From an uncultured virus (IMG/VR IMGVR_UViG_3300022602_000035) (taxonomy: Duplodnaviria; Heunggongvirae; Uroviricota; Caudoviricetes), in IMG/VR virus record IMGVR_UViG_3300022602_000035: 64,000 nucleotides of DNA, one strand, 5' to 3'. This document shows, one piece after another, positions 1 through 39,647 of the stretch (positions are counted from its first letter, which is position 1; each line of letters starts with the position of its first letter). The notes under the pieces are model-generated. The model saw nothing but the letters and a program-made list of their open reading frames with translations. It was not told the origin of the DNA and did no database searches. The position numbers were made by a program, and so were the translations under genes.

Positions 1-464
1 ATGTTCCGCAGTACAATGATTGGCTGGAACAAAACATTTTTAGAACATATCCCACTAAAGGTCCGTGGATATTAGCAACACTGTACTTGATTGTGTTTGG
101 ATGGTTGGGACTGTTGGTTGGTTTAGTGTGGATGTACGTTGCTCGTATGAGCGCACGTTTGCACAACTACATGTCGCATACTAGAGGATATCGTAATTGG
201 CCACATGCAGATCCTTGGGATAAGAGTGTTAATATAATACCAATTGGTATTATTTGGGCCGGAGAAGAGTTAGCGGCTAATCATCACGATGATCCTCAAA
301 GTCCAAAACTTAGTCGTCGTTGGTTTGAATTTGATATTGGTTGGGTGGTTATATTATTGTTAGCTAAGTTAAATTTAGTTACATTTATTGACGCTAGACA
401 ACTGAAAGGCCATTGGTATAGTTGGTTGTTTAAAAAAGAGGTTGACAAAGCAGTCAAAAAGTAG
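1..464 (+). CDS. Fatty acid (acyl-CoA delta-9-like) desaturase, 5'-truncated by window edge
   Basis: Frame open from base 3; C-terminal GEELAANHHDDP and RWFEFDIGW motifs, paralogous to 3035 and 3789 ORFs. Confidence 0.8.
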   Translation, partial: VPQYNDWLEQNIFRTYPTKGPWILATLYLIVFGWLGLLVGLVWMYVARMSARLHNYMSHTRGYRNWPHADPWDKSVNIIPIGIIWAGEELAANHHDDPQSPKLSRRWFEFDIGWVVILLLAKLNLVTFIDARQLKGHWYSWLFKKEVDKAVKK

Positions 465-470
465 TATTAT
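442..470 (+). promoter_or_regulatory. Sigma70-type promoter
   Basis: TTGACA-17nt-TATTAT. Confidence 0.6.
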
Positions 471-525
471 ATGTGTATATTTTAAATTTGGTATAAATAA
501 AAGTATAAATAAATTAATAAAGAGG

Positions 526-554
526 TTGACAGTCTACTAAATAGATTGTATAAT
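526..554 (+). promoter_or_regulatory. Consensus sigma70 promoter upstream of leader and tRNA array
   Basis: TTGACA(526-531)-17nt-TATAAT(549-554); TATAAATA late-type boxes also at 492 and 504. Confidence 0.85.
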
Positions 555-596
555 AGTTTTATAGTAAGAAATTAATTAAAGGAATGCGAAAGCAAA

Positions 597-743
597 ATGT
601 TTAACCAGCTACATCAATTTAAAGGATCGAAACAAGTGATAGCACTTGCCACGATGTCTTATTGGTCAGCGATTGAGACATCAGGCAATGATCGCACACC
701 GAATAGTATCTGTGGGGTTCGAGAGGGATGGGATGGTTATTAA
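597..743 (+). CDS. Putative 48-aa leader peptide (MFNQLHQFKGSKQVIALATMSYWSAIETSGNDRTPNSICGVREGWDGY)
   Basis: ATG 597 to TAA 741-743, AAAGGA upstream; lies between promoter and terminator; below the ORF-track size cut-off. Confidence 0.6.
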   Translation: MFNQLHQFKGSKQVIALATMSYWSAIETSGNDRTPNSICGVREGWDGY

Positions 744-770
744 GTAAATAACAAAATCCAAAACTTTAAG

Positions 771-806
771 AACCCTAGAGCAGAAATGTTACTAGGGTTT
801 TTTGTT
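771..806 (+). terminator. Intrinsic terminator / attenuator hairpin
   Basis: AACCCTAG-AGCA-GAAA-TGTT-A-CTAGGGTT followed by a T-tract. Confidence 0.85.
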
Positions 807-910
807 TTATGTGTCAGGGAAACGAGGTCCAAGCAAGGCACATTAAAGATAGTATGTTAAACGGGCGTACTAGAGGATGGCATGTTCTTATGTGAACAGA
901 AAATTCTAGT

Positions 911-995
911 TATAATAAAGTACATTGGATGAGGCTAATGGTATGCCTGCGCAAGCGATCTAGGTTCGACTCCTAGTCTAGTGTATTTTATTATA
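911..995 (+). ncRNA. tRNA-like element without anticodon arm
   Basis: D-like arm GGC-TAATGGTAT-GCC, T arm CTAGG-TTCGACT-CCTAG, 19-bp closing stem, no CCA. Confidence 0.55.
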
Positions 996-1021
996 CGCAT
1001 TCATATGAGTGCGTTACAAAT

Positions 1022-1102
1022 TTGTAGTGAGTTTAAGTGGGCACTTATAGCGTCAGCAGACGTCAAGATCGCAACTTGTGAGGTTCGAGTCCTCCACTAC
1101 AA
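1022..1102 (+). ncRNA. tRNA-like element (8/4 fold, 4-nt anticodon loop)
   Basis: TTGTAGTG/CACTACAA stem, T arm GAGG-TTCGAGT-CCTC, long variable arm, no CCA. Confidence 0.5.
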
Positions 1103-1160
1103 TTTAACACGGCTCCTATCCGTAGAATACCGCAAGGTCGGCTTAGGAGTTATTTTTAAA

Positions 1161-1239
1161 CTCAGTGTCGTATAGTCAGGCCTATTATGCGTGCTTTGGG
1201 AGCATGAGATCGTTGGTTCGAATCCAACCACTGAGACCA
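1161..1239 (+). tRNA. tRNA-Pro(UGG), copy before the assembly gap
   Basis: Cloverleaf, anticodon loop TTTGGGA, CCA end. Confidence 0.85.
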
Positions 1240-1273
1240 AGTTTATGGAGGTGTAGGAAAATTGGTAACCCCA

Positions 1274-1373
1274 NNNNNNNNNNNNNNNNNNNNNNNNNNN
1301 NNNNNNNNNNNNNNNNNNNNNNNNNNNNNNNNNNNNNNNNNNNNNNNNNNNNNNNNNNNNNNNNNNNNNNNNN
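1274..1373. other. Scaffold gap (100 N) flanked by an exact 127-bp duplication (1147-1273 = 1374-1500)
   Basis: Direct sequence comparison. Confidence 0.95.
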
Positions 1374-1387
1374 GAGTTATTTTTAAA

Positions 1388-1466
1388 CTCAGTGTCGTAT
1401 AGTCAGGCCTATTATGCGTGCTTTGGGAGCATGAGATCGTTGGTTCGAATCCAACCACTGAGACCA
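1388..1466 (+). tRNA. tRNA-Pro(UGG), identical copy after gap (probably the same gene)
   Basis: Identical to 1161-1239. Confidence 0.85.
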
Positions 1467-1473
1467 AGTTTAT

Positions 1474-1558
1474 GGAGGTGTAGGAAAATTGGTAACCCCA
1501 GCGGACTGTAAATCCGCCGCCCCTGGCATTGTTGGTTCAAGTCCAACCGCCTCCACCA
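1474..1558 (+). tRNA. tRNA-Tyr(GUA)
   Basis: GCGGA-CTGTAAA-TCCGC arm, long V arm, CCA. Confidence 0.93.
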
Positions 1559-1564
1559 TATAAC

Positions 1565-1640
1565 GGAATGATAGCTCAATTGGTAGAGCAAGATGCTTTT
1601 AACGTCGAGGTTTAGGGTTCAAGTCCCTATCGTTCCACCA
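1565..1640 (+). tRNA. tRNA-Lys(UUU)
   Basis: Loop CTTTTAA, T arm GGTTCAAGTCC, CCA. Confidence 0.9.
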
Positions 1641-1645
1641 GTAAT

Positions 1646-1721
1646 GCGGTATTAGCTCAATCGGGAGAGCACGGCACTGTCACTGCCGAGGTAAGGGGAT
1701 CGAAACCCCTATATCGCGCCA
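1646..1721 (+). tRNA. tRNA-Asp(GUC)
   Basis: CGGCA-CTGTCAC-TGCCG, G discriminator, CCA. Confidence 0.92.
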
Positions 1722-1729
1722 AAAAGATG

Positions 1730-1758
1730 TTGACAATTATTAAATTAGAATATATAAT
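1730..1758 (+). promoter_or_regulatory. Internal sigma70 promoter in tRNA array
   Basis: TTGACA-17nt-TATAAT. Confidence 0.8.
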
Positions 1759-1775
1759 AGTTGTATAGTTTCAAT

Positions 1776-1851
1776 AGCGGGATGGAGAAGTTGGAATCTC
1801 GGCAGCCTCATAAGCTGTAGGTCGGCAGTTCGAATCTGTCTCCCGCAACCA
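1776..1851 (+). tRNA. tRNA-Met(CAU), initiator-like
   Basis: Loop CTCATAA; 1:72 mismatch and CCCGCAACCA end as in fMet tRNAs. Confidence 0.88.
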
Positions 1852-1861
1852 AGTTTTAAAT

Positions 1862-1937
1862 GCACCATTCATCTAGAGGCCTAGGATACTGCCCTTTCAC
1901 GGCAGGTACACGAGTTCGAATCTCGTATGGTGTACCA
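1862..1937 (+). tRNA. tRNA-Glu(UUC)
   Basis: CTGCC-CTTTCAC-GGCAG, CCA. Confidence 0.92.
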
Positions 1938-1947
1938 AGTTTTAAAA

Positions 1948-2032
1948 GCCCCTTTGCGCCGAATGGGATGGCAGCGGATTTGTAATCCGTCTTCGTAAGA
2001 TAGAGAGTGTTCGATTCACTCAGGGGGCACCA
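1948..2032 (+). tRNA. tRNA-Thr(UGU) with long variable arm
   Basis: GCGGA-TTTGTAA-TCCGT, acceptor GCCCCTT/AGGGGGC, CCA. Confidence 0.8.
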
Positions 2033-2074
2033 ATTTTTAAACTACAAGCATAAATAAAATAAAAGGAGTTTGTA

Positions 2075-2731
2075 GTGCTAAAATATTCAAAGGCAGAAGC
2101 AGGAAAGTTAGGAGCAGAAAAATCCAAGATTACAACTGCTCTTAAGAAAAAAGAAAGGATAGATCAATATAGTCTAAATCCTAAACATTGTAAACAATGT
2201 AATAAGGTGTTAGAATATAAAGATAGAAATAAAACATTTTGTAATAGTAGTTGTTCTGCTACATTTAACAATTTAAAAAGAACAGATGCTATAAGAAAAA
2301 ATCCTACAAAATATAAAGAAAAAAGAGTTCCTGTTAAATGGAACTGTTTAAACTGTAACAAAGAACACACAACCGTAGCGTGGAGAATCGGAAAATACTG
2401 TAATACCGATTGCCAACACGAATATGAATATAAACAAAGACTAACTGAATGGTTAGTAGAAAATAAAAAGATAGGTAAAAATGCTATGAAGCGGTACTTG
2501 TCTGAAACACACGGATACAAATGTTCAGTATGTAGTATCAGTGAATGGAATAACAAAAAAATTGTATTAGAATTAGAACATATCGATGGTAACTCTGACA
2601 ATAATAATTTAGAAAATATTTGTTTGATTTGCCCGAATTGTCATAGCCAAACTGACACATATAAGGGCAAAAATGTAGGACAAGGTAGGCACTACAGAAG
2701 AGTGCGTTACGCAGAAGGAAAAAGTTTTTAG
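2075..2731 (+). CDS. HNH homing endonuclease with Cys-rich N-terminus
   Basis: CSVC...LELEHIDGNSDNNNLENICLICPNCHSQT. Confidence 0.9.
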   Translation: MLKYSKAEAGKLGAEKSKITTALKKKERIDQYSLNPKHCKQCNKVLEYKDRNKTFCNSSCSATFNNLKRTDAIRKNPTKYKEKRVPVKWNCLNCNKEHTTVAWRIGKYCNTDCQHEYEYKQRLTEWLVENKKIGKNAMKRYLSETHGYKCSVCSISEWNNKKIVLELEHIDGNSDNNNLENICLICPNCHSQTDTYKGKNVGQGRHYRRVRYAEGKSF

Positions 2732-2738
2732 ATTTAAT

Positions 2739-2823
2739 GCGAGAGTGGCGGAATTGGTAGACGCACTGGATTTAGGTTCCAGCGCCGCAAGGCGTGAGAG
2801 TTCGAGTCTCTCCTTTCGCACCA
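2739..2823 (+). tRNA. tRNA-Leu(UAG)
   Basis: CTGGA-TTTAGGT-TCCAG, class II body, CCA. Confidence 0.95.
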
Positions 2824-2941
2824 AAGATTTGCTTGGTTAGTAACGGAAAGTGTGTTTAATTGGGGCTACGAGCCTTTACTCCGCCCAAAGAACGGTATCG
2901 TAAAGATATATGGACCGTCTTTACACAGCGCAAAGTTTTAT

Positions 2942-3015
2942 GCGGGATTAGTTTAATGGTAGAACTGCAGATTTCCAATCTCCTGGTGAGGGTTCGATTC
3001 CCTTATCCCGCTCCA
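2942..3015 (+). tRNA. tRNA-Gly(UCC)
   Basis: GCGGGAT acceptor, loop TTTCCAA, TCCA end. Confidence 0.9.
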
Positions 3016-3034
3016 TATAATTTAAGGAAAGGAT

Positions 3035-3796
3035 ATGTTTAGTTGGCAAGCGGCAATAATCACGTACATAATTCTGTCACATATATCTGGTGCAATATTT
3101 TCTGTATATGTGCATCGTGGTATTGGACACAGGCATTTTGATTTTAACCCAAGTCTAGCACATGTATTTAGATTTTGGCTTTGGTTCGGGTCGGGGCATT
3201 GCTGGGATAACTGGATGCAACACTGGGCTGCAAAACATCGCAAGCATCATGCAACTGCGGATACTCCAGAGGATCCGCACAGTCCTTTTTATTATTCATT
3301 TTTTGAAATGTTTAGTGTATCGCACAGTGATCCTAGTAAACCAAACTATATATCGCCTAAGGAAATTAAAAAATATGCACCGGATGTTAAGAGTGCCGAC
3401 GATTGGGTAGAACGCAATATCTATTGCAAATATCCTAAACTAGGACTGGCATTGTTTGCAGTAATGATGACTGTGTTATTTGGAATCCCTGGGTTAGTAT
3501 TAGGATTATTTAATTATTTCTTTATTGGACACTTTTTTATATTTTTTGGTAATTATGCATTTCATAAGATTGGTTGGAAATATGCTACGGTTAGCAATGT
3601 AGACAAAGCACGTATATTCTGTCCATGGGGTATTTTTAGTGGTGGCGAAGAACTACACGCACATCACCACAACGATCCAAATAACCCAAACTATAGACAT
3701 AATTGGTGGGAGATTGACATTGGCTGGCAATATAGTAAAATATTAATGGCATTGGGATTAATGAGTTTACGTAAAAAGGACAAAAAACGTGTTTAG
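3035..3796 (+). CDS. Fatty acid desaturase (delta-9-like)
   Basis: His boxes HRGIGH, HRKHH, HAHHH; DPHSP and WWEIDIGW motifs; transmembrane segments. Confidence 0.88.
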   Translation: MFSWQAAIITYIILSHISGAIFSVYVHRGIGHRHFDFNPSLAHVFRFWLWFGSGHCWDNWMQHWAAKHRKHHATADTPEDPHSPFYYSFFEMFSVSHSDPSKPNYISPKEIKKYAPDVKSADDWVERNIYCKYPKLGLALFAVMMTVLFGIPGLVLGLFNYFFIGHFFIFFGNYAFHKIGWKYATVSNVDKARIFCPWGIFSGGEELHAHHHNDPNNPNYRHNWWEIDIGWQYSKILMALGLMSLRKKDKKRV

Positions 3797-4544
3797 TTGG
3801 TCTGCTGGATTGGTTACTTATGTTATTTGTTGTCATATATTGAGTAATATCTATACAGTCTATGTACATCGCGGATTAGGACATCATCACTTTGAATTTA
3901 GTAAACCATTAGAGCACGTGTTTCGATTTATATTATGGTTTCAAATAGGTTTTGTTTGGGATAATTGGCAACAGCACTATGCAGCCAAACACCGCAAACA
4001 TCATAGATACAGTGACACTAAACAAGATCCACATAGCCCATATTTTTACACTGTGAAACAAATGTTAGATGTAGGACATCAAGATCCAGCCAGAGCCAAC
4101 TATATTAGCAAAGAAGAAATACAGTTGTATGCTCCGGATATTAAAAGTCCAGATGATTGGATTGAACGAAATATCTATTTAAAATATCCTAAATTAGGAT
4201 GCTGGTTATTTATATTAGTAATGACTGTGTTGTTTGGTATCACTGGATTGATATTGGGGTTGATTAATTATTATCTAATGCCTGCATTGTATATACTTGT
4301 AGGAAACTATCTAACACACAAAGTGGGATTTACCTATCCATGGAATCTCAAGATTGATAAGAGTAAGATAGTATTTCCATGGGGTATCATAGCAGGTGGC
4401 GAAGAATTGCATGCACACCATCATGATGACTCATCTAAACCATACTTTCATAGGCATTGGTGGGAAATAGATCCAGGTTGGTTATACGCTAAGATATTAA
4501 TCAAATTGAGATTAATGCAGTTGTCAGAAAAGAGTACGTATTAG
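3789..4544 (+). CDS. Fatty acid desaturase (tandem paralogue)
   Basis: HRGLGH, HRKHH, HAHHH boxes; colinear with upstream ORF. Confidence 0.88.
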   Translation: MFSWSAGLVTYVICCHILSNIYTVYVHRGLGHHHFEFSKPLEHVFRFILWFQIGFVWDNWQQHYAAKHRKHHRYSDTKQDPHSPYFYTVKQMLDVGHQDPARANYISKEEIQLYAPDIKSPDDWIERNIYLKYPKLGCWLFILVMTVLFGITGLILGLINYYLMPALYILVGNYLTHKVGFTYPWNLKIDKSKIVFPWGIIAGGEELHAHHHDDSSKPYFHRHWWEIDPGWLYAKILIKLRLMQLSEKSTY

Positions 4545-4792
4545 AACACTAGGTTACACTTTTCCTTAAAGAAAGTGGGTCATTGCCAATACCATAACGG
4601 CAGGGTGCGCACGATGGTCTAGACCATACCACAAGTCCCATTTCCGGGAGCCTTGAAAGTATCGTGGGTGTTTTACTGTTTTTAACCACAAAGCAAACAG
4701 GCGGACAGGTGCAACAACTCAGATTAGGGCCAGGTGGTGCTGGTAGCTAATCACTAACATAAATACTTTGTTAGTAAAGTGGACAGAGTAAA

Positions 4793-5314
4793 ATGAATAA
4801 AGCGTATGTATATAAATGGGTTCATAAACCATCATTGAAATGGTATGTAGGTTCTCATACTGGAAAAGATGAAAATTATATATGTTCATCTAAATTAATT
4901 AAACATCATATAATAGAGTTTCCTGATGAATGGGAACGGCAGATATTTGCTTACGGCACGCCTGAAGAAATGTATGATTTAGAAACTGAAATTTTACAGT
5001 TAACTGACGCAAAACACGATCCAAGATCATTCAATGGACACAATAATGATGGCAAATTTAATACAATTGGTCGTACAAAAGAATTTATGTCAGAATCTGA
5101 ATTAGCTAATCGAAAAAAAGTTAATGCAGGTAAGACAAAAACAGAAGAACATAAGAAAAAATTATCTGACGCATTAAAAGGAAGACCTAATCCAAGATTT
5201 GCTACATTATTTGGAAAAGGGGTTTCTAAAAACAAAGTAGTATGTCGAATATCAGACAGAAAAGAAATGAGCTTATCACATTTCATTCAATATATTAATC
5301 GACTAAACAAATAA
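4793..5314 (+). CDS. GIY-YIG (Seg-like) homing endonuclease with NUMOD3-like motif
   Basis: YVYKW...WYVGSH N-terminus; KTEEHKKKLSDALKGR. Confidence 0.75.
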   Translation: MNKAYVYKWVHKPSLKWYVGSHTGKDENYICSSKLIKHHIIEFPDEWERQIFAYGTPEEMYDLETEILQLTDAKHDPRSFNGHNNDGKFNTIGRTKEFMSESELANRKKVNAGKTKTEEHKKKLSDALKGRPNPRFATLFGKGVSKNKVVCRISDRKEMSLSHFIQYINRLNK

Positions 5315-5323
5315 GAAGTAAAT

Positions 5324-5398
5324 GGGCTGTTGGTATACTTGGGAACACACCTGCCTTGCACGCAGGAGTACGGGGTTCGACTCCCCGACGGTCCACCA
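5324..5398 (+). tRNA. tRNA-Ala(UGC)
   Basis: Loop CTTGCAC, G3:U70 pair, CCA. Confidence 0.92.
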
Positions 5399-5404
5399 TA
5401 TTAT

Positions 5405-5481
5405 AGAGGATTAGCTCAGTTGGTACGAGCAACTGCCTTACAAGCAGAAGGTCACTGGTTCGACCCCAGTATCCTCCACCA
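5405..5481 (+). tRNA. tRNA-Val(UAC)
   Basis: Loop CTTACAA, CCA; A1:C72 mismatch. Confidence 0.88.
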
Positions 5482-5503
5482 GTTAGTAGTAGTAAAGTTT
5501 TAT

Positions 5504-5591
5504 TCCGCATGAGCCAGCAAGGTGACGGCACCGGACTGTTAATCCGAGATCCATGAAAGTGGGCGAGGTTCGATCCCTCGATGCGGAGCCA
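5504..5591 (+). tRNA. tRNA-Asn(GUU) with long variable arm
   Basis: Loop CTGTTAA, TCCGCAT/ATGCGGA acceptor, GCCA end; V arm CCAT-GAAA-GTGG. Confidence 0.85.
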
Positions 5592-5723
5592 GTTTTAGGA
5601 TAGACGGCAAGATTGAGTCCTAAGTAGTGCTTTTAACACGAAAATAGATGAGCTCTCTTGTTCGAGACAATCCGGTGAGGCCTATCTGGAGGGGGATAGC
5701 CGGGCTCCTAAAAACCTTTTTAT

Positions 5724-5797
5724 AGTCTGTTAGTTCAATGGGAGAACAGTCGACTGATAATCGACAAACACTGGATCGTAACCAGTACGGACTACCA
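5724..5797 (+). tRNA. tRNA-Ile(GAU)
   Basis: GTCGA-CTGATAA-TCGAC, CCA. Confidence 0.9.
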
Positions 5798-5987
5798 AGT
5801 ATTCCAACCACATCGCGTTTAGGGTGAAGTAGGGCGTGCAAACTAAAACCCTGTAAGATCAAAAATACCTACCAAGCAAGGAGGAATTACAGCGCAAGCT
5901 GAAGAACAATGTGGTGACTTGCTACCCGGGAGAAAGCTGTAACATTACGTATTCGAGGTTAGGAGAGTACAGCAAACCGCCCAACAT

Positions 5988-6079
5988 GGAAGCGTGGCAG
6001 AGTCCGGCTTATTGCAACAGTCTTGAAAACTGTAGGGCCAGCGATGGCTCCGTGGGTTCAAATCCCACCGCTTCCTCCA
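5988..6079 (+). tRNA. tRNA-Ser(UGA)
   Basis: ACAGT-CTTGAAA-ACTGT, long V arm, CCA. Confidence 0.93.
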
Positions 6080-6086
6080 AATTCAG

Positions 6087-6115
6087 TTGACACTGCGAGT
6101 AAATGGTGTTACAAT
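6087..6115 (+). promoter_or_regulatory. Internal sigma70 promoter (extended -10)
   Basis: TTGACA-17nt-TACAAT with TGn. Confidence 0.7.
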
Positions 6116-6145
6116 ATGTGTATAGTAAGAAATTAGCAAAGTTTT

Positions 6146-6235
6146 GGAGAGTTGGCCGAGTGGTCGAAGGCAGCGGCTTGCTAAGCCGTCCTCCCTGTAA
6201 AGGGAGCATAGGTTCGAATCCTATACTCTCCGCCA
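6146..6235 (+). tRNA. tRNA-Ser(GCU)
   Basis: Loop TTGCTAA, long V arm, GCCA. Confidence 0.93.
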
Positions 6236-6240
6236 AATAC

Positions 6241-6315
6241 CCGGTGTTAGTTAAATGGATATAACAGGGGATTTCTACTCCCTAGTTGGGGGTTCGATTC
6301 CCTCACGCCGGACCA
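6241..6315 (+). tRNA. tRNA-Arg(UCU)
   Basis: Loop TTTCTAC, CCA. Confidence 0.88.
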
Positions 6316-6324
6316 AGTTTTAAT

Positions 6325-6415
6325 CCTCCTGTAGCTCAATGGCAGAGCGGCGAGCTTATACCTCGTAACGATAGATAATCGGCTGATACAGGTTCGAGTC
6401 CTGTCGGGAGGACCA
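6325..6415 (+). tRNA. tRNA-Ile(UAU) with long variable arm
   Basis: GCGAG-CTTATAC-CTCGT, V arm CGAT-AGATA-ATCG, CCA. Confidence 0.8.
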
Positions 6416-6426
6416 AATAGTTTAAT

Positions 6427-6500
6427 TGGCTCATAGTGAAGTGGTATAACAACAGGTTTTGATCCTGTCATCCTTGGTTCGATTCCAAGTGGGCCTGCCA
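6427..6500 (+). tRNA. tRNA-Gln(UUG)
   Basis: ACAGG-TTTTGAT-CCTGT, GCCA. Confidence 0.88.
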
Positions 6501-6633
6501 AATAAATAAAGAACAGTCCGGAGCATGCGAGTCCTACGATTAGTAGGAGAAAACTCCACTTATAGCTGGAATTTACCAGTGAACCCTATGGACGCATAGG
6601 GCTACGGGCATCCTGGGGGACAACTCCAACTAT

Positions 6634-6711
6634 TCCGGGTTAGCTCAGTCTGGTAGAGCGGTGGTCTCCAAAACCACGTCAGCGGCGGTTCAAATCCGTC
6701 ACTCGGAGCCA
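6634..6711 (+). tRNA. tRNA-Trp(CCA)
   Basis: GTGGT-CTCCAAA-ACCAC, GCCA. Confidence 0.9.
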
Positions 6712-6721
6712 AACAACTTAC

Positions 6722-6798
6722 GCAACGGTACCAGAGTGGCCTAATGGCGGGGACTGCAAATCCCTTGTTCGTCGGTTCAAATCCGACCCGTTGCTCCA
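6722..6798 (+). tRNA. tRNA-Cys(GCA)
   Basis: Loop CTGCAAA, U discriminator, CCA. Confidence 0.9.
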
Positions 6799-6799
6799 T

Positions 6800-6877
6800 G
6801 GTGGTCTAGCATAGATGGTCTGTGCGGTTCTTTCATAAGGAACAATGGGACTGGTTCGATTCCAGTGGTCACCACCA
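6800..6877 (+). tRNA. tRNA-Met(CAU) elongator (or Ile2)
   Basis: GTTCT-TTCATAA-GGAAC, CCA. Confidence 0.82.
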
Positions 6878-6883
6878 AATAAC

Positions 6884-6959
6884 GCCCTTGTAGTTCAACG
6901 GATTAGAATACAACGCTACGAACGTTATGATAGGGGTTCGATTCCCTTCAAGGGCTCCA
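6884..6959 (+). tRNA. tRNA-Arg(ACG)
   Basis: Loop CTACGAA, CCA. Confidence 0.9.
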
Positions 6960-6977
6960 GAAATGATAAATATTTGT

Positions 6978-7199
6978 ATGAAAACATATCTAAATTCAAT
7001 AATGTACGCAGTAGGAACACTTCTTATTGATCTAGGCATCATGGTATTAGTAGTTGGTGCACTAGGTGGATTAGGATACTGGATCTACACATTGTTAATA
7101 ACTAATCAAATACCTCTAGCAGTAGTAGTAAGTGGTATTAGTTTAATTATCATTGGTTATATTGTGCATTTCATATTTCGCAATCGCGAAGACGAATAA
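6978..7199 (+). CDS. Small two-helix membrane protein
   Basis: Two hydrophobic segments; start moved to ATG 6978, outside tRNA-Arg. Confidence 0.65.
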   Translation: MKTYLNSIMYAVGTLLIDLGIMVLVVGALGGLGYWIYTLLITNQIPLAVVVSGISLIIIGYIVHFIFRNREDE

Positions 7200-7216
7200 T
7201 TATCACCGAGTAACAC

Positions 7217-7290
7217 GCAGGATTAGTTTAATGGTAAAACGAAACGTTGCCAACGTCTAGTCACGAGTTCGATTCTCGTATCCTGCTCCA
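7217..7290 (+). tRNA. tRNA-Gly(GCC)
   Basis: Loop TTGCCAA, TCCA. Confidence 0.9.
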
Positions 7291-7292
7291 AT

Positions 7293-7367
7293 GGTGTCTA
7301 TAATGTAGCGGTAACATTCAGGATTGTGATTCCTGCATCATGGGTTCGAACCCCATTAGACACCCCA
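7293..7367 (+). tRNA. tRNA-His(GUG)
   Basis: CAGGA-TTGTGAT-TCCTG, G-1:C73, CCA. Confidence 0.92.
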
Positions 7368-7403
7368 CTTGACTTTTTAGTCCGTTGACTGTATAATACA
7401 CAT

Positions 7404-7568
7404 ATGAAAAATAAAAACGCATACACAAAGTTCCAAGAAGCAGAAGATGCTGAAACAGCCTATGCTATGGTATTATCTGGGCAGTGGACTGTTGAACGAT
7501 TTGCTGAATGGTACGATCAGGTCAAACATATTGAATACATGTATGCCACAGCAGATGAGAGCTTTTGA
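7404..7568 (+). CDS. Hypothetical protein (54 aa)
   Basis: ORF directly after promoter TTGACT-17-TATAAT (7369-7397). Confidence 0.6.
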   Translation: MKNKNAYTKFQEAEDAETAYAMVLSGQWTVERFAEWYDQVKHIEYMYATADESF

Positions 7569-7826
7569 GTGACAGAAGAACAACAATTAGCCTGGGATAT
7601 ATTAAGCACACCTGACAATGCGGACTTTAAAGAGTACCGCAGAATGCACTATGCAACATGGCTAACTAAAGAACGCAAGGTATTACTAATATCTGATATG
7701 GAAACAGGTTATATTATTAACTGTATTAACATGCTAGAAGCATTAGGACAAGAAACTACTTTAGCCTACGCAGGCTTAATTGATGAACTAGGAAGGCGAG
7801 GGCATGAATATGAAAACCAAATTTGA
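7569..7826 (+). CDS. Hypothetical phage protein
   Basis: Tightly packed ORF. Confidence 0.65.
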   Translation: MTEEQQLAWDILSTPDNADFKEYRRMHYATWLTKERKVLLISDMETGYIINCINMLEALGQETTLAYAGLIDELGRRGHEYENQI

Positions 7827-8157
7827 TTGGAATGGTCTAAGTGATTTACCTGATGTAAGTCAAGAAGCACTTAAGAACTATTTCTTATATGCTCTACCAC
7901 CAGGTAGTTTCTTAACCAGTTTGTTAAGTTGCGATCCGTGGACCGATGTTATTGCACGTGCAGACCATTGGAACAAAACACGCTTAAAAGAATATTCACT
8001 ATGGCTACAGGACTTTGCTCCGCCAGGTAGTTGGGGTAGCCAAGATATTGTTGCTGATTGGTTACGTAAAGGTTCTGCTTACGAAGCATTCCAAAAGTCT
8101 ATGACTTGGGAAATACTACAAGCAAATGAATATGAATCAAAAGACTATGACTTCTAA
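7804..8157 (+). CDS. Hypothetical phage protein
   Basis: Packed ORF with PPGSFL...D and APPGSWGS pattern. Confidence 0.7.
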   Translation: MNMKTKFDWNGLSDLPDVSQEALKNYFLYALPPGSFLTSLLSCDPWTDVIARADHWNKTRLKEYSLWLQDFAPPGSWGSQDIVADWLRKGSAYEAFQKSMTWEILQANEYESKDYDF

Positions 8158-8338
8158 ACAACCAAGTTGGGTTGAACAACGAGAGGCTCTTCGTCAACAT
8201 GTTGAAGAGCCTTTAGTGTTTGTTGGCGAACGGGGTGCCGATGGAGTTATTGATGGAAAGTTACCCAACGGTGAACCTTACGGTTGGTACAAACGCAGAG
8301 GCACCAAAGATACCAAGTTCAAAGGACGCAAGGTATAA
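8126..8338 (+). CDS. Hypothetical protein
   Basis: Packed ORF. Confidence 0.6.
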   Translation: MNMNQKTMTSKQPSWVEQREALRQHVEEPLVFVGERGADGVIDGKLPNGEPYGWYKRRGTKDTKFKGRKV

Positions 8339-8598
8339 TGTACTACTGTGATATGGGACCGGATGGTGCTGAAATACGCAGTGCTCGCTTTAAACCTAAA
8401 ACTGTTGGGCGGTATGTAATATACCAAGGTGAACACCCGCCTGTACGTTTACTCTACCAAGCACATACTATAGCTATCTTAAATGACAATGGCGATTTAG
8501 TATGGTACAAGCACAGAAATCGTAGTGAGATGGCATTGCTCACTAAAGAAGAACAGCAAGATTTAATGCTACAGATATTAAAAAGTGAGAATTGGTAA
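8338..8598 (+). CDS. Hypothetical protein
   Basis: TAATG coupling to upstream ORF. Confidence 0.6.
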   Translation: MYYCDMGPDGAEIRSARFKPKTVGRYVIYQGEHPPVRLLYQAHTIAILNDNGDLVWYKHRNRSEMALLTKEEQQDLMLQILKSENW

Positions 8599-8981
8599 TG
8601 GACTTTACAATTGACCCAGAATACCTAACCAGTGTAAGCATACGTGAAGAATGGAACACTTATACACAAAATGGTCGTGTGCCAACTAACGAAGAACTTG
8701 TTTTAATTATTCAAGGTAAAGGTGTGTGTTCAACCACAAGTTCAGAAGATCACCCAGAGTTTACTAAACTACGTGAACAGTTAGGTGAACTTGGATACAT
8801 TAGGGTTGAACGCGGTTGGTGGAATGGCGATAGAGTTCTAAAGCCGTTCAAACTTAACGGCAGAAAGTTCAAAGAGGGTGATCAGTTTAGTTGTGGTGCT
8901 GCAATGGGTACGCACCTTATTGTACGTGCTAAACACCCAGAATATTATAAGGATGAATACGATGATGAAACCATGGATTGA
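8592..8981 (+). CDS. Hypothetical protein
   Basis: Packed ORF. Confidence 0.65.
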   Translation: MVMDFTIDPEYLTSVSIREEWNTYTQNGRVPTNEELVLIIQGKGVCSTTSSEDHPEFTKLREQLGELGYIRVERGWWNGDRVLKPFKLNGRKFKEGDQFSCGAAMGTHLIVRAKHPEYYKDEYDDETMD

Positions 8982-9381
8982 AAATATTAGTCTTGATGAT
9001 GTTCGCAAGGGCTATCATTACGACCCAGGTTTCAACAGTATGCTGATCCAGATTGTAGATCCTGGTACAGAATTCCCAACACCTAAATATGACTTCCGTA
9101 AAGTCTATAAGTTTTTCTTTTTAGATGTAGAAGACAATGAGCCAGATGGCTGTTTATACGATGCGGCAATTACCAATGCTGATGCTAAAGGTATTGCCGA
9201 AGCACTGAAAGAAGCGTGGAACGAACATATGAATGTAGTGGTACACTGCCATATGGGTGTAGCACGCAGTGGTGCAGTAGCAGAAGTAGGAGTTATGATT
9301 GGGTTTAGAGATACAGAGAAATTCCGTATTCCTAACTTGATGGTTAAACATAAGTTAATGCACTATTTAGAGTTAGTTTAG
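8962..9381 (+). CDS. Protein-tyrosine/dual-specificity phosphatase-like protein
   Basis: VVHCHMGVARS = HCX5R catalytic loop. Confidence 0.8.
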   Translation: MMKPWIENISLDDVRKGYHYDPGFNSMLIQIVDPGTEFPTPKYDFRKVYKFFFLDVEDNEPDGCLYDAAITNADAKGIAEALKEAWNEHMNVVVHCHMGVARSGAVAEVGVMIGFRDTEKFRIPNLMVKHKLMHYLELV

Positions 9382-9384
9382 AAT

Positions 9385-9460
9385 GCCAACTTAGCAAATG
9401 TGGTCATTGCGGCGGTCTGAAGAGCCGTTGAACTTGGTTCGATCCCAAGAGTTGGCACCA
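9385..9460 (+). tRNA. tRNA-Phe(GAA)
   Basis: GCGGT-CTGAAGA-GCCGT, CCA. Confidence 0.9.
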
Positions 9461-9484
9461 TTAAATACATAAAAGGGTAACGCA

Positions 9485-9955
9485 ATGAAAAAATTGAATT
9501 TCGATGAAGTGCGTGATTTCATTAACGCACAAAGTGATGCAACTAAGATCTACATTGGTGGCGACAGCACACGTTTCCGTAAAAATGGTGTGTGGCATGC
9601 TGAGTATACCTTGGCCATTGTAGTACACATTGATGGTAACCACGGCTGTAAGATCTTTGGTGAAAGTTCAGTTGAAGTAGACTACGATCAAAAGCGTAAT
9701 CGCCCTGCTATGCGACTAATGAACGAAGTATACAAGATCAGTGAACTATACTTGAAGTTACATGAAGTATTAGAAGGACGTGATGTTGCTGTACACTTGG
9801 ACATCAACCCAAATGAACTACATGGTAGTAGTTGCGTAGTACAACAGGCTATTGGTTATATCCGTGGTACTTGTAACGTTATCCCAATGGTTAAACCTAA
9901 CGCCTGGGCTGCAAGTTATGCCGCCGACCGTCTAAAAGAAGTATTGGCTGCTTGA
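9485..9955 (+). CDS. RNase H-like YkuK (DUF458) family protein
   Basis: KIYIGGDS, RLMNEV, VHLDINP, KPNAWAASYAAD. Confidence 0.75.
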   Translation: MKKLNFDEVRDFINAQSDATKIYIGGDSTRFRKNGVWHAEYTLAIVVHIDGNHGCKIFGESSVEVDYDQKRNRPAMRLMNEVYKISELYLKLHEVLEGRDVAVHLDINPNELHGSSCVVQQAIGYIRGTCNVIPMVKPNAWAASYAADRLKEVLAA

Positions 9956-10011
9956 CAAACTAACTAAACGAGTGTATAATAGCACTTGTTTAGTTAATTC
10001 CAAGGACCAAT

Positions 10012-20107: not shown

Positions 20108-20782
20108 ATGAAAGTCTACTCAATATTAGTGCATCCTAATCAGGTTAGTTTAAACAGCCAGATGTTTGATATGGCTAATAGTTATTTTAAGAAACAGGGT
20201 CATACAGTAAAAACTATTAATCTATATCAAGATGCAACTGATATTAAGTATTCATCATCCGAACTGTATCAGAATACTGCTTCATCAGATGAAAAAGGCC
20301 TTATGAGTGATTATAATTATAATTACGCAGTGGCTAAATTTAAAAAATTAACCAGTAATTTTGTCAATGACGAGATAGCTAATTTAAAGCAAGCAGACAT
20401 AGTCTATATTCAATCGCCTATATTAGTATGGTCGTTGCCTGCGATGCTTAAATTGTATATCGAAAACGTATTCATTGCCAACGAAATGTTTGTTATTAAA
20501 AACCCGTGGGCAGATACAGATTTCGAAATCGAAAAGTTAATGAAAGATAAACGAGTAATATTTTCATTAACAGCAGGCAGTAGTCAATCGCTGACTAACT
20601 ACGTAATAGGCAGTACTGATCTATTACTGCATCCAATTAAATCAATGTTTGAATTTGTAGGATTTGAATGGGTCGCTCCGCATATAACTTGGGGCACTAC
20701 TAGAACACACACAAAGCAAGATCAGTACTTAGAAGACTTTCAATTATATTTGAAAAATTTAAAGGATAACCATGGATTATAA
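20108..20782 (+). CDS. NAD(P)H-dependent oxidoreductase, flavodoxin-like fold
   Basis: [32 protein letters not shown]. Confidence 0.75.
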
Positions 20783-22058
20783 AGTAGCAGATATTAACTT
20801 GGCTGAATGGGGCCATAAAGAAATAGCAATTGCGGAAACAGAAATGCCAGGGCTAATGGCTATCCGTGAAGAACTACAGGCAAGTCAACCACTAAAAGGC
20901 GCACGTATCACAGGGTCATTACATATGACTATTCAAACTGCGGTATTAGTACAAACTCTTGTAGCTCTAGGTGCAGAAGTACGTTGGGCCAGCTGTAACA
21001 TCTTTAGTACACAAGACCATGCCGCGGCCGCCTTAGCTGATCAAGGTATTCCTGTGTTTGCTTGGAAAGGTGAAACAGAAGATGAATACTGGTGGTGCTT
21101 AGAACAAACAGTTACGGGTCCAGATGGTTGGGTTCCTAACATGCTATTAGATGATGGACACGACCTAACTTGGTATATTCATGTTAACTATCCAGAACTG
21201 CTAGAAGGTATCTACGGTGTTACTGAAGAAACAACTACAGGTATTCACAAAATTAACGAAGCTATTGCCAACGGCAGTTTCAAACTACGTGCTATTAACG
21301 TTAATGACAGTGTAACTAAGAGCAAGTTTGATAACTTGTATGGTTGTCGTGAAAGTCTAGTAGACTCAATCAAACGTGCCACTGATGTTATGATCGCTGG
21401 TAAAACAGCGGTAGTAGCAGGTTACGGTGATGTAGGTAAAGGTAGTGCCGCAAGTCTTAAAGCACTTGGTGCTCAGGTTTGGGTAACTGAGATTGATCCA
21501 ATCTGTGCCTTACAAGCCGCAATGGAAGGCTACAAGGTAGTTACTATGGACTATGCCGCAGACAAAGCAGATATCTTTGTAACAGCCACAGGCAATGTAG
21601 ATATCATTACACATGATCACATGTTGGCTATGAAGAACAATGCTATTGTATGTAACATCGGTCACTTTGACAGCGAAATCCAAATTGCCAGCTTGGCTAA
21701 CTATGAGTGGGATGAAATCAAACCACAGGTAGATCATGTTACTATGCCTAGCGGTCGTAAGATTATTGTTCTAGCTAAAGGTCGATTGGTAAACTTGGGC
21801 TGTGCTACAGGACATCCTAGTTTTGTTATGTCAAATAGCTTTACTAACCAAGTAATGGCACAGGTTGAAATGTACACAAACTATGCTAACTATGAAGTTG
21901 GTAAAATGTACTTGTTACCTAAACATCTAGATGAAAAGGTAGCTAAACTACATCTAGCTCAGATCGGCGCTGAATTAACAGAGCTAACATCTAAGCAAGC
22001 AGACTATATTGGTGTAACTGTAGAAGGTCCATACAAACCTGAAACATATCGCTATTAA
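20772..22058 (+). CDS. ahcY: Adenosylhomocysteinase
   Basis: [54 protein letters not shown]. Confidence 0.97.
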
Positions 22059-22339: not shown

Positions 22340-23434
22340 ATGAAAACATCAAAAATACCAGGACTAGGCAGATTTGGAATCTATATCGATGACGTAGATT
22401 TTAATACAATTACTGATGATGAATGGATGGCCATTGGTCGTCTGCACTTACAAAACTTAGTTACAGTTATTCGTAACACTAACCTAACTAAAGATCAACA
22501 GATTGATTTTACTCATCGATTAGGTGACAGTAGATTTGGCGCAAAGAATTACTTTGTAAACAAATATAGCATGTCCTGGGATTATATCATGACTTTGACT
22601 CTGATCGAATCGGATGAGATAACTCCAGAAGATCGCAAGATTGTTAAAGGATGTATGAGTACGCTGGAAAAAGCCCGCGGCGGCCATGTAGGTCGTGTAT
22701 CAGGCGGATATGATGCAGAAGGTAATCCCAAAGGATTCTTTGCTGAAGGCGAATTAGATTGGCACAGCAACGAATCGGGTACACTGACATTCAGTCCAGG
22801 TGTTGCCCTATTAGCAGTTAAAAATGTAGTAGGTAGTGCTACCAGTTTCCTTACCACTACTGATTACTATGAGTCAGTAAATGATAGTTTCCGCCGTGAA
22901 TTGGATGAAATGATTCTAATACACAAATTTACTCCCGGCAAAATCAATCCAGGATTAAATGCTGAACAAGATCGCCTAATGCAGTACAACATGTGCCCTG
23001 TAGACGGTAGAGAAATCCCAATGGTAATTACCAGTCCGGGAGGCATCAAAGGTCTACATTACAGTGTTAATACTGTTTGGGGTATTAAGGGTCTATCTAA
23101 AGCAGAAAGTGACAAGGTATTTGCACGCATCAATAAAGAATTGTTTGTAGAAAAATATATGTATGACCATTGGTATAAAAATACCGGCGATTTTTTGTTG
23201 TTTGACAACAGTATTACCTTACATAAACGTCTAGGCAATATTAAAGATCGCTTATGCTATAGACTACAACACGACTATACTAATTTACAGGATGGCCCGT
23301 GGCTACCGTACAGTCAACCTGATATTGCTCGAGACTATAGAAAAGAAATACGTAACTTTGTTAAGTCAACAGGTATTAAGAACTTTAAATTACCTCCAAG
23401 AAAGTTAGTTGATTTTATACCATTTATAAAATGA
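22340..23434 (+). CDS. TauD/TfdA-family dioxygenase-like protein
   Basis: GELDWHSN, HWYKNTGDFLLFDNSITLHKR. Confidence 0.8.
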   Translation: MKTSKIPGLGRFGIYIDDVDFNTITDDEWMAIGRLHLQNLVTVIRNTNLTKDQQIDFTHRLGDSRFGAKNYFVNKYSMSWDYIMTLTLIESDEITPEDRKIVKGCMSTLEKARGGHVGRVSGGYDAEGNPKGFFAEGELDWHSNESGTLTFSPGVALLAVKNVVGSATSFLTTTDYYESVNDSFRRELDEMILIHKFTPGKINPGLNAEQDRLMQYNMCPVDGREIPMVITSPGGIKGLHYSVNTVWGIKGLSKAESDKVFARINKELFVEKYMYDHWYKNTGDFLLFDNSITLHKRLGNIKDRLCYRLQHDYTNLQDGPWLPYSQPDIARDYRKEIRNFVKSTGIKNFKLPPRKLVDFIPFIK

Positions 23435-38027: not shown

Positions 38028-39647
38028 ATGAAATCAGATATCAAAATAAATCAGTCGGCAGAAGTATTACCTATCAGTGTAGTTGCTGGTAGTATCAACT
38101 TATTCGATGATCAAATTGACCTATACGGTCGAAACAAAGCTAAAATTAATATTGACCAACTTACTAACCGCACAAAACGTGATAGTAAGTTGATCTTAGT
38201 AACAGCCATAACCCCAACGCCCTCAGGTGAAGGTAAGACCACAACAACCATTGGACTTGCAGACGGACTACGTAAACTAGACTACAATGCCATTGTATGC
38301 CTACGTGAACCCGCATTAGGTCCTGTATTTGGTATGAAAGGTGGCGCCACTGGAGGCGGGTATGCTCAGGTATATCCCATGGAAGATATTAACCTACACT
38401 TTACAGGTGATTTCCATGCTATAGCTTCGGCACACAACTTGTTAGCCAGCTTAATCGACAACCATTTACACTGGGGTAATAAGCTCAATTTGGACACTAA
38501 CAACATCACATGGCGTAGAGTTAGTGACATGAACGATCGTGCGTTACGCGACGTTTGTGTAGGTCTAGGAGCCCATAACAGCGTTACACGTCAGACAGGA
38601 TTTGACATTGTAGTGGCATCAGAAGTAATGGCTATTCTATGTCTGGCAGATGATTTTAAAGATTTGAAAAAACGCCTGGGTAAGATCACAGTTGGGTATA
38701 CCCTAGATGGAAAGCCAGTTACAGCTAAAGATCTAAAAGCCAATGGTAGTATGGCCGCACTACTTAAAGACGCAGTTAAACCTAACCTGGTACAGACTCT
38801 AGAAGGTACTCCTGCGCTGATACATGGTGGCCCATTTGCCAACATAGCACATGGCTGTAACAGTGTTATTGCTACCAAGTTGGGTATGAAACTTGCTGAC
38901 TATGTGGTAACAGAAGCAGGCTTTGGTGCTGACCTAGGTGCTGAGAAGTTTATCAACATCAAATGTCGTAAGAGTGGCCTACGTCCTGATGTGGTTGTAT
39001 TAGTGGCCACAGTCAGAGCCATCAAATATTGGGGCAACTACGATAACTTGGACAAGCATATTGCCAACATCACCACATGGTATAACTTGCCCTGTGTTGT
39101 GGCCATTAACAAGTTTGACGGGGATACAGAACAAGAGATTAAAGATTTACAACAGCACGTCTGGGACACATTTAAAATTGAAGCAGTGGTAAATCACTCT
39201 TGGGCAGATGGCGGCATTGGCGCACAAGAACTCGCACACGAAGTGGTCATGGCCATCGACGAAAGCACCAAGACTATGGAACTTACCTATGCCGATGATG
39301 AAACATTGTTCTGGAAACTTAATGCTGTGGCCACACGCATTTACAATGCCTATGAAATACAAATGGATGCTAAGATAGCACGTCGTTTAGAAGAACTACA
39401 GAAAGATTACGGGCATTATCCAATTTGTATTGCCAAGACACAGAGTAGTTTCAGTGATGATCCTACAAATAAATTGGCCGCAACTGAACGGCATGTTTTA
39501 ACAGTGCGTGAATTACGCCTATGTAGTGGTGCTGAGTTTATTGTGGCAGTATGCGGCAACATCATGACCATGCCAGGCTTACCAGAACGACCAAACGCAG
39601 AACGTATTGGCATTGATAAGCAAGGGCGTATAGAGGGATTAGATTAA
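38028..39647 (+). CDS. fhs: Formate--tetrahydrofolate ligase
   Basis: TPSGEGKTTT, GMKGGATGGGY, HGGPFANIAHG, TEAGFGADLGAEKF, IMTMPGLP. Confidence 0.97.
   Translation: MKSDIKINQSAEVLPISVVAGSINLFDDQIDLYGRNKAKINIDQLTNRTKRDSKLILVTAITPTPSGEGKTTTTIGLADGLRKLDYNAIVCLREPALGPVFGMKGGATGGGYAQVYPMEDINLHFTGDFHAIASAHNLLASLIDNHLHWGNKLNLDTNNITWRRVSDMNDRALRDVCVGLGAHNSVTRQTGFDIVVASEVMAILCLADDFKDLKKRLGKITVGYTLDGKPVTAKDLKANGSMAALLKDAVKPNLVQTLEGTPALIHGGPFANIAHGCNSVIATKLGMKLADYVVTEAGFGADLGAEKFINIKCRKSGLRPDVVVLVATVRAIKYWGNYDNLDKHIANITTWYNLPCVVAINKFDGDTEQEIKDLQQHVWDTFKIEAVVNHSWADGGIGAQELAHEVVMAIDESTKTMELTYADDETLFWKLNAVATRIYNAYEIQMDAKIARRLEELQKDYGHYPICIAKTQSSFSDDPTNKLAATERHVLTVRELRLCSGAEFIVAVCGNIMTMPGLPERPNAERIGIDKQGRIEGLD

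Follow-up and report, generated by a model that had tools for sequence, protein, structure and literature searches.

Background

In the trpL, hisL, leuL, pheL, thrL and ilvL leaders of enterobacteria, a ribosome that arrives at the stop codon of the leader ORF allows a terminator to form, and a ribosome that stalls leads to read-through. Arrays of tRNA genes are common in phage genomes; to our knowledge, the control of their expression is hardly known.

Another leader of this kind is the uORF of whiB7 in mycobacteria. In the study of this system (PMC10274678), efficient translation of this uORF leads to rho-independent termination, and translation stress leads to read-through. The residues held by the uORF decide which amino-acid shortages are sensed, and one codon for an amino acid, such as one Trp codon, is enough to detect its shortage. 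The whiB7 uORF of M. smegmatis contains every amino acid except Cys (PMC10274678).

Here we analyse a 64,000-nucleotide stretch of DNA from an uncultured virus (IMG/VR record IMGVR_UViG_3300022602_000035), referred to as the window. It is part of a large phage-like contig with baseplate, primase, and DnaB-like and UvsW-like helicase genes and numerous genes of metabolism, and its 26 tRNA calls cover all 20 amino acids. Close to its start lies a short leader ORF between a strong promoter and a terminator. We read this unit as a ribosome-mediated attenuator, in which transcription terminates when the leader is translated efficiently and reads through when any amino acid is decoded slowly, and give this reading a probability of about 0.6.

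Architecture of the leader unit

The features of the unit are listed in Table 1. The original prediction described a perfect sigma-70 promoter, and the hexamers (TTGACA at 526-531, TATAAT at 549-554, 17-nt spacer) indeed match the consensus at 12 of 12 positions. The internal promoters that it placed at 1730 and 6087 are also present, with 12/12 (1730-1758) and 11/12 (6087-6115) matches, and a further 12/12 site lies at 9952-9980. The promoter-like site overlapping the end of the preceding ORF may also feed the leader. The A/T-rich stretch in front of the -35 hexamer may be UP-element-like.

Table 1. Features of the leader unit and of the region that follows it
Feature	Position	Strand	Description
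Promoter-like site	442..470	+	TTGACA-17-TATTAT, 11/12; overlaps the end of the preceding ORF
A/T-rich stretch	497..525	+	Precedes the -35 hexamer; also conserved among close relatives (L001-L030)
Sigma-70-type promoter	526..554	+	TTGACA-17-TATAAT, 12/12; retained in relatives, with variable spacer
Shine-Dalgarno-like motif	578..583	+	AAAGGA, 13 nt 5' of the ATG; read from the sequence
Leader ORF	597..743	+	ATG, 48 codons plus TAA; all 20 amino acids, 36 distinct codons
Most conserved core	660..701	+	From the Tyr22-Trp23 codons (660-665) to the Asp32-Arg33-Thr34-Pro35 codons (690-701)
Antiterminator hairpin	713..777	+	5' arm 713-741 (last 10 codons, G-run 714-717), 3' arm 747-777
Intrinsic terminator	770..808	+	Stem 770-782 with 787-800, then T-run
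Structured or tRNA-like RNA region	809..1160	+	Conserved; first to be reached by read-through
First tRNA block	1161..1721	+	Pro, Tyr, Lys, Asp; lies before the promoter at 1730

The start of the ORF is retained by differing means among relatives of the unit. L016 has AAAGGGA 7 nt 5' of the ATG. In L038, L039 and L040 (at about 2460-2500) the -10 hexamer lies only 7 nt 5' of a double ATG, which suggests a leaderless mRNA; it is these leaderless-type loci that indicate the differing means.

The reading frame is retained as well. When the conserved Asp codon is located by a frame-blind motif, its distance from the ATG takes nine values between 90 and 114 nt, every one of them a multiple of 3, and the motifs of the peptide persist at 30-50% identity. 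Frame retention and the conserved motifs are consistent with translation of the leader ORF. Conservation of the ORF in related phages was one of the checks proposed for this locus, and frame, start codon and stop position are kept, at lengths of 41-54 codons.

A family of leader units at the head of tRNA arrays

The unit is found in 48 IMG/VR viral contigs (30+14+4 loci). A search with the peptide gave 30 IMG/VR loci and a profile search gave 44 database proteins of 41-66 aa; the distant members split into two alignments, with 14 and 4 further loci. Each locus combines a sigma-70-type promoter with an ORF of 41-54 codons, and each has a terminator as well as a hairpin that spans the stop codon. 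With single-linkage clustering at 60% identity, 65 of the 73 distinct peptides merge into one group. No cultured relative was found among 50,697 phage records, either by DNA or by peptide, and the ORF upstream of the leader has no cultured-phage relative either.

A tRNA array follows the unit in 27 of the 30 loci, and the other three end within about 100 nt; among the distant loci, 13 of the 15 scanned have an array downstream. Flanks of 10 kb contain 0-2 tRNAs on the upstream side and as many as 26 on the downstream side; the unit thus marks where the array starts. Many relatives, among them L031-L040, L043, L044 and L017, have only about 15-25 nt between the U-run and the next ATG, too little to accommodate a promoter.

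Many relatives carry a second small ORF right after the U-run (42-54 aa, helical-looking; e.g., L017 3219-3347 and L031 2740-2904). This ORF is absent from the window. In L043, ARAGORN calls a permuted tmRNA at 359-790, about 1.7 kb upstream of the leader unit, with a tag ending in ALAA; no tmRNA is called in the window.

Four metatranscriptome assemblies were compared with the unit. In one run contigs of relatives cover 504-717, and in another a 254-nt contig spans the terminator of a relative into the downstream RNA; such RNA-library contigs show presence only, give neither ends nor strand, may stem from DNA carry-over and are silent on regulation, and stretches that they leave uncovered carry no meaning.

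Two competing predicted hairpins at the end of the leader ORF

The original prediction placed a strong intrinsic terminator behind the ORF. The hairpin at 770-800 has a folding energy of -15.4 kcal/mol and is followed by T798-T803, G and T805-T808, so that terminator activity is predicted for it. A simple terminator scan missed this hairpin because loops were limited to 3-8 nt. The 3' arm of the terminator occurs only once in the window.

The second hairpin, the antiterminator, encloses the stop codon (741-743) and uses bases 770-777 of the terminator stem. An alternative hairpin sequestering the 5' arm of the terminator had been proposed, and all four of its helices (713-720 with 770-777, 722-725 with 764-767, 731-734 with 756-759, and 736-741 with 747-752) are in the MFE structure of 700-815 (-29.1 kcal/mol, z -3.06). 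When the last 40 nt of the ORF and the stop codon are forced to be single-stranded, the terminator forms instead (-17.4). The fold thus flips from antiterminator to terminator, the outcome anticipated for folding with and without the end of the ORF constrained. At equilibrium without a ribosome, the window favours the terminator (antiterminator 0.13, terminator 0.87).

The same arrangement is found throughout the family. In the MFE structure of the nascent RNA, taken up to the 5' arm of the terminator, the G-run of the ORF pairs with the C-run of the terminator in 33 of 33 distinct loci. This pairing is kept though the apical parts are unrelated, with at least three forms. In 33/33 loci, too, the antiterminator encloses the stop codon, which follows the G-run at a distance of 8-30 nt.

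Covariation of both helices in related phages, a further check that had been proposed, is seen as compensatory changes in antiterminator and terminator alike. In the outer helix of the antiterminator, 199 of 210 cells are paired (30 distinct sequences). Compensatory changes occur at 2-3 of the 7 positions, for example U-A (19) and C-G (11) at one, and elsewhere C-G (25) and U-A (4); six bases are common to both helices. Slid partners pair in 14-60% of cells, and none of 1000 shuffles matches the observed pairing. Note that MAFFT set the 5' arm in differing registers, and because of these shifts the antiterminator pairs were counted from the G-run and C-run anchors; in the nine MAFFT rows that are consistent in register, all 63 cells are paired. 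In the terminator 211/211 cells are paired, and three pairs have changed on both sides.

The share of each fold at equilibrium differs widely between loci, from 0 to 1. This spread implies that the two folds have similar energies, which is what a balanced switch should show. In form B, the commonest form among relatives (10 of 30 distinct sequences), the terminator is compatible with the inner hairpin, and only about four pairs compete. No conserved anti-antiterminator was found; the alternative partners of the G-run differ between loci. At least five versions of the terminator stem-loop are freely combined with different antiterminator forms (L001-L044), suggesting modular exchange by recombination.

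Amino-acid completeness of the leader peptides

A recount agrees with the original description of a 48-codon ORF that holds all 20 amino acids and 36 different codons: none is used more than twice, and all four Gly and all three Ile codons are included. Among random 48-aa pieces from 43 ORFs of the same window 2.2% contain all 20 amino acids, and 0.16% of 48-codon pieces from the window's own ORFs have at least 36 distinct codons. The leader uses 23 of the 24 anticodon species of the phage (null 18.3, P 0.005); on the same scale, the relatives use 21-24.

Completeness is also found in the relatives. Of 73 distinct peptides (41-54 aa), 61 contain all 20 amino acids and 12 lack Cys alone, and none has fewer than 19; complete sets occur in 0.7-4.4% of random ORF pieces. 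Cys is found exactly once in 54 of these peptides and His exactly once in 68. The Cys residue occupies 17 different alignment columns, and close relatives, such as L041 and L043, swap its position.

In the alignment of 58 rows, 49 are complete. Simulation along the tree (LG+G4, fitted site rates, all-20 root) gives 11.3 +/- 5.6 complete rows of 58 with a maximum of 31 in 300 runs, in alignments that have diverged somewhat further than the actual alignment (identity to the window peptide 0.53 vs 0.61). Column shuffles, which ignore relatedness, give 17.3 complete rows, or 22.7 when done within two clades, and 0 of 2000 reach 49 in either case. Completeness is maintained beyond both the tree simulation and the column shuffles. 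The family is a rare case of selection on a set of residues and not on their positions.

If the count is restricted to codons 13 nt or more upstream of the G-run, complete leaders number 8 of 32 and a further 21 have 19 amino acids, the one lacking in the window being Cys; extending the count as far as the G-run raises the complete leaders to 24 of 32. The sole Cys codon of the window (711-713) abuts the 5' arm of the antiterminator, so a ribosome stalled there would probably mask this arm. The arrays behind complete leaders have 7 to 20 isotypes, and completeness does not track the tRNA repertoire. The idea that Cys-less leaders precede arrays lacking tRNA-Cys is unsupported, for two of three such loci (L076 and L080) have a tRNA-Cys and L091 does not.

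Proposed mechanism

The features described above suggest the following sequence of events. The strong promoter would yield a short mRNA, and the 48-codon ORF would be translated while RNA polymerase advances. A ribosome that keeps pace would enter the last 10 codons and the stop codon, unwinding or covering the 5' arm (713-741). The C-run at 773-775 would then be free, the terminator (770-800 with its U-run) would form, and transcription would stop around 803-808. With no ribosome on the ORF, or one delayed further upstream in it, the 713-777 hairpin would form first and take six bases of the terminator stem; polymerase would then continue past it to the structured RNAs and tRNA genes. We infer that the ORF is translated, that the terminator is active, which way the switch works and what makes the ribosome stall in nature. 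Each part of the attenuator reading that can be tested in silico (paired helices, stop placement, frame, position at the head of the array, and completeness) supports it.

Because the ORF is kept complete, slow decoding of almost any codon should tip the switch. Since the output consists of tRNA and structured RNA, such a loop would keep decoding capacity in balance, as a homeostat. We tentatively propose, at a little short of even odds, that selection has kept this "pangram" leader of large freshwater phages complete for amino acids and nearly so for codons of the phage tRNA species, so that one terminator switch senses decoding capacity at any codon and induces the phage tRNAs when the tRNAs of the host run short, are cleaved or fail to match, as might follow from anticodon nucleases or host shut-off. 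If so, it would be a homeostat for the whole translation capacity and not for a single metabolite, and tRNA arrays would be linked to host tRNA-targeting defences and host shut-off.

The conserved core and alternative explanations

A part of the leader asks for more than codon sampling. All 58 aligned peptides have W23, R33 and P35, and Y22 and D32 are nearly invariant (W...DRxP signature); the W-to-P spacing ranges between 12 and 16 residues. Third codon positions of the core are conserved too. A pure codon sampler needs neither the signature nor this third-position conservation, which hints at a pause built into the ORF, an effect of the nascent peptide or a role in trans. In close relatives 663-666/669-673 can pair with 691-695/698-701, and this hairpin is lost in the distant group. 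Another hairpin, 653-682 in the centroid fold, was rejected because L006 alters both arms without compensation.

The core could belong to an ordinary small early gene with a promoter and terminator of its own, whose 48-aa peptide acts in trans, e.g., on the host translation or tRNA machinery. The hairpin at the stop codon would then serve mRNA stability or be incidental, and constitutive leak and internal promoters would feed the downstream genes. The invariant W23, R33 and P35 and the motifs kept down to 30-50% identity would suit a functional peptide, and AlphaFold predicts a single helix for residues 6-29, but at low confidence (pLDDT 62, pTM 0.27). Phage tRNA regions are rich in small ORFs, the second small ORF of the relatives being one, and peTrpL is reported as a leader peptide with a trans role. 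The 48-aa peptide has no match in Pfam or PHROG and no usable hit in the Atlas, however, and the window has no second copy of its family. The C-terminal tail is unconserved as peptide and varies together with the hairpin; what it preserves is the RNA pairing with the 5' arm of the terminator. A small gene also leaves the single roving Cys and the completeness unexplained, and we consider it unlikely.

The signature might instead act inside the ribosome. In an attenuator based on nascent-peptide arrest, W...DRxP would stall the ribosome in response to a small molecule or factor, the ribosome stalled 13-18 nt before the end of the G-run would set the fold, and completeness would be secondary. 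The Pro codon is in fact nearly fixed at this distance, and regulatory arrest peptides often depend on a Trp and a Pro; here W, R and P are invariant, and Y and D nearly so. The variable spacing from W to P is unusual for tunnel-dependent arrest, though, and arrest explains no selection for all 20 amino acids; the context suggests no ligand. Arrest is thus an improbable account of the unit.

The hairpins could also form a fixed, unregulated partial terminator that trims a very strong promoter and sets a constant read-through. The near-isoenergetic folds, their locus-dependent balance, and the supply of most tRNAs by internal promoters anyway are all consistent with this. It does not explain why an ORF has its stop codon inside the hairpin in all 33 distinct loci, nor the completeness, and we regard it as very unlikely. 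That the terminated transcript of about 245 nt is a small regulatory RNA or processing substrate with a secondary ORF is the least credible reading: the conserved third positions of the core, the whole leader's more stable folding than that of shuffles (z -3.5) and known attenuator-derived sRNAs (rnTrpL) would agree with it, but frame, start codon and stop position survive many indels, the hairpins predicted inside the ORF are not retained across groups, and there is no Rfam match.

The region behind the terminator

The attenuator that we favour would act first on the region behind the terminator. The original prediction had the tRNA array directly there, which is not the case, as the first tRNA called by ARAGORN starts at 1161, 355 nt beyond the terminator. 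No promoter-like site better than 9/12 is found in 808-1160; the region behind the terminator therefore depends on read-through until 1730. Note that the strong internal promoters at 1730 and 6087 independently feed much of the array.

Within 809-1160, a helix at about 810-845 has a compensatory change in L004 (by eye), and two T-arm-like GGTTCGA motifs occur at about 963-975 and about 1083-1095. ARAGORN with default settings calls nothing in 809-1160, and a relaxed run on 800-1175 gives only low-score tRNA-like genes. The best Rfam match in the region is weak (SpF41-like, E 0.12). These sequences may derive from decayed tRNA genes or encode a structured RNA of a new kind. Apart from tRNAs, no Rfam family is assigned to 500-1170 (E up to 10) or to 1-10000 (E up to 1).

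In the first tRNA block, tRNA-Pro(tgg) is called twice (1161-1239 and 1388-1466). An N-run at 1275-1373 is flanked on both sides by the same sequence of roughly 130 nt (within 1143-1505), which suggests that overlapping ends of contigs were joined in scaffolding. Given these identical flanks, the second tRNA-Pro is probably a scaffold duplicate and not a true duplication.

The array also contains protein-coding genes. An HNH endonuclease (PHROG) and a NUMOD3-motif protein (2075-2731 and 4793-5314) are homing-endonuclease-like insertions. Two adjacent genes of the fatty-acid-desaturase family are found in the tRNA region (3035-3796 and 3789-4544), and the cut ORF upstream of the leader (3-464) is desaturase-like by eye, with no Pfam hit. 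Auxiliary metabolic genes elsewhere in the window encode an S-adenosylhomocysteine hydrolase, a taurine-dioxygenase-like protein and a formate-tetrahydrofolate ligase (20772-22058, 22340-23434 and 38028-39647).

Comparison with known systems

If the attenuator reading holds, phages would gauge the decoding speed of all amino acids with one 48-codon test message and respond to it, and would not just flood the cell with tRNA. The unit would also be a compact natural part for sensing translation capacity. Full-text literature searches found no leader-peptide control of tRNA genes.

T-box leaders (RF00230) resemble this unit in that the status of tRNA is sensed and a choice is made between terminator and antiterminator. 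A T-box binds one uncharged tRNA directly and has no ORF, whereas the unit described here has an ORF and its leader has no T-box match.

The logic of trp- and his-type attenuators, which the original prediction invoked, holds in part. The promoter, a short leader ORF (putatively translated here), the terminator, the overlapping antiterminator and the placement of the stop codon are all shared. Leaders of the trpL type carry runs of cognate codons, whereas no codon occurs more than twice here and the leader contains no run of codons for a regulating amino acid. They also have a region-1:2 pairing (pause or anti-antiterminator), which has no conserved counterpart here. Their targets are biosynthetic enzymes, in contrast to the tRNA and structured-RNA genes behind this leader.

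The whiB7 leader (PMC10274678) likewise has a short uORF, a terminator and a competing antiterminator, shown experimentally for whiB7 and in silico here. It is cellular and its target is a transcription factor of drug tolerance, whereas here the setting is a phage and the targets are tRNA genes. The whiB7 uORF is 25-40% Ala, its sequence is free to vary, and many species lack several amino acids; in the leaders described here completeness is maintained and the peptide core is invariant, and the two have no sequence relation. On this comparison, the mechanism would be that of a known ribosome-mediated attenuator, of the general-stress type represented by whiB7, and the tRNA target, the phage setting and the selected completeness would be new.
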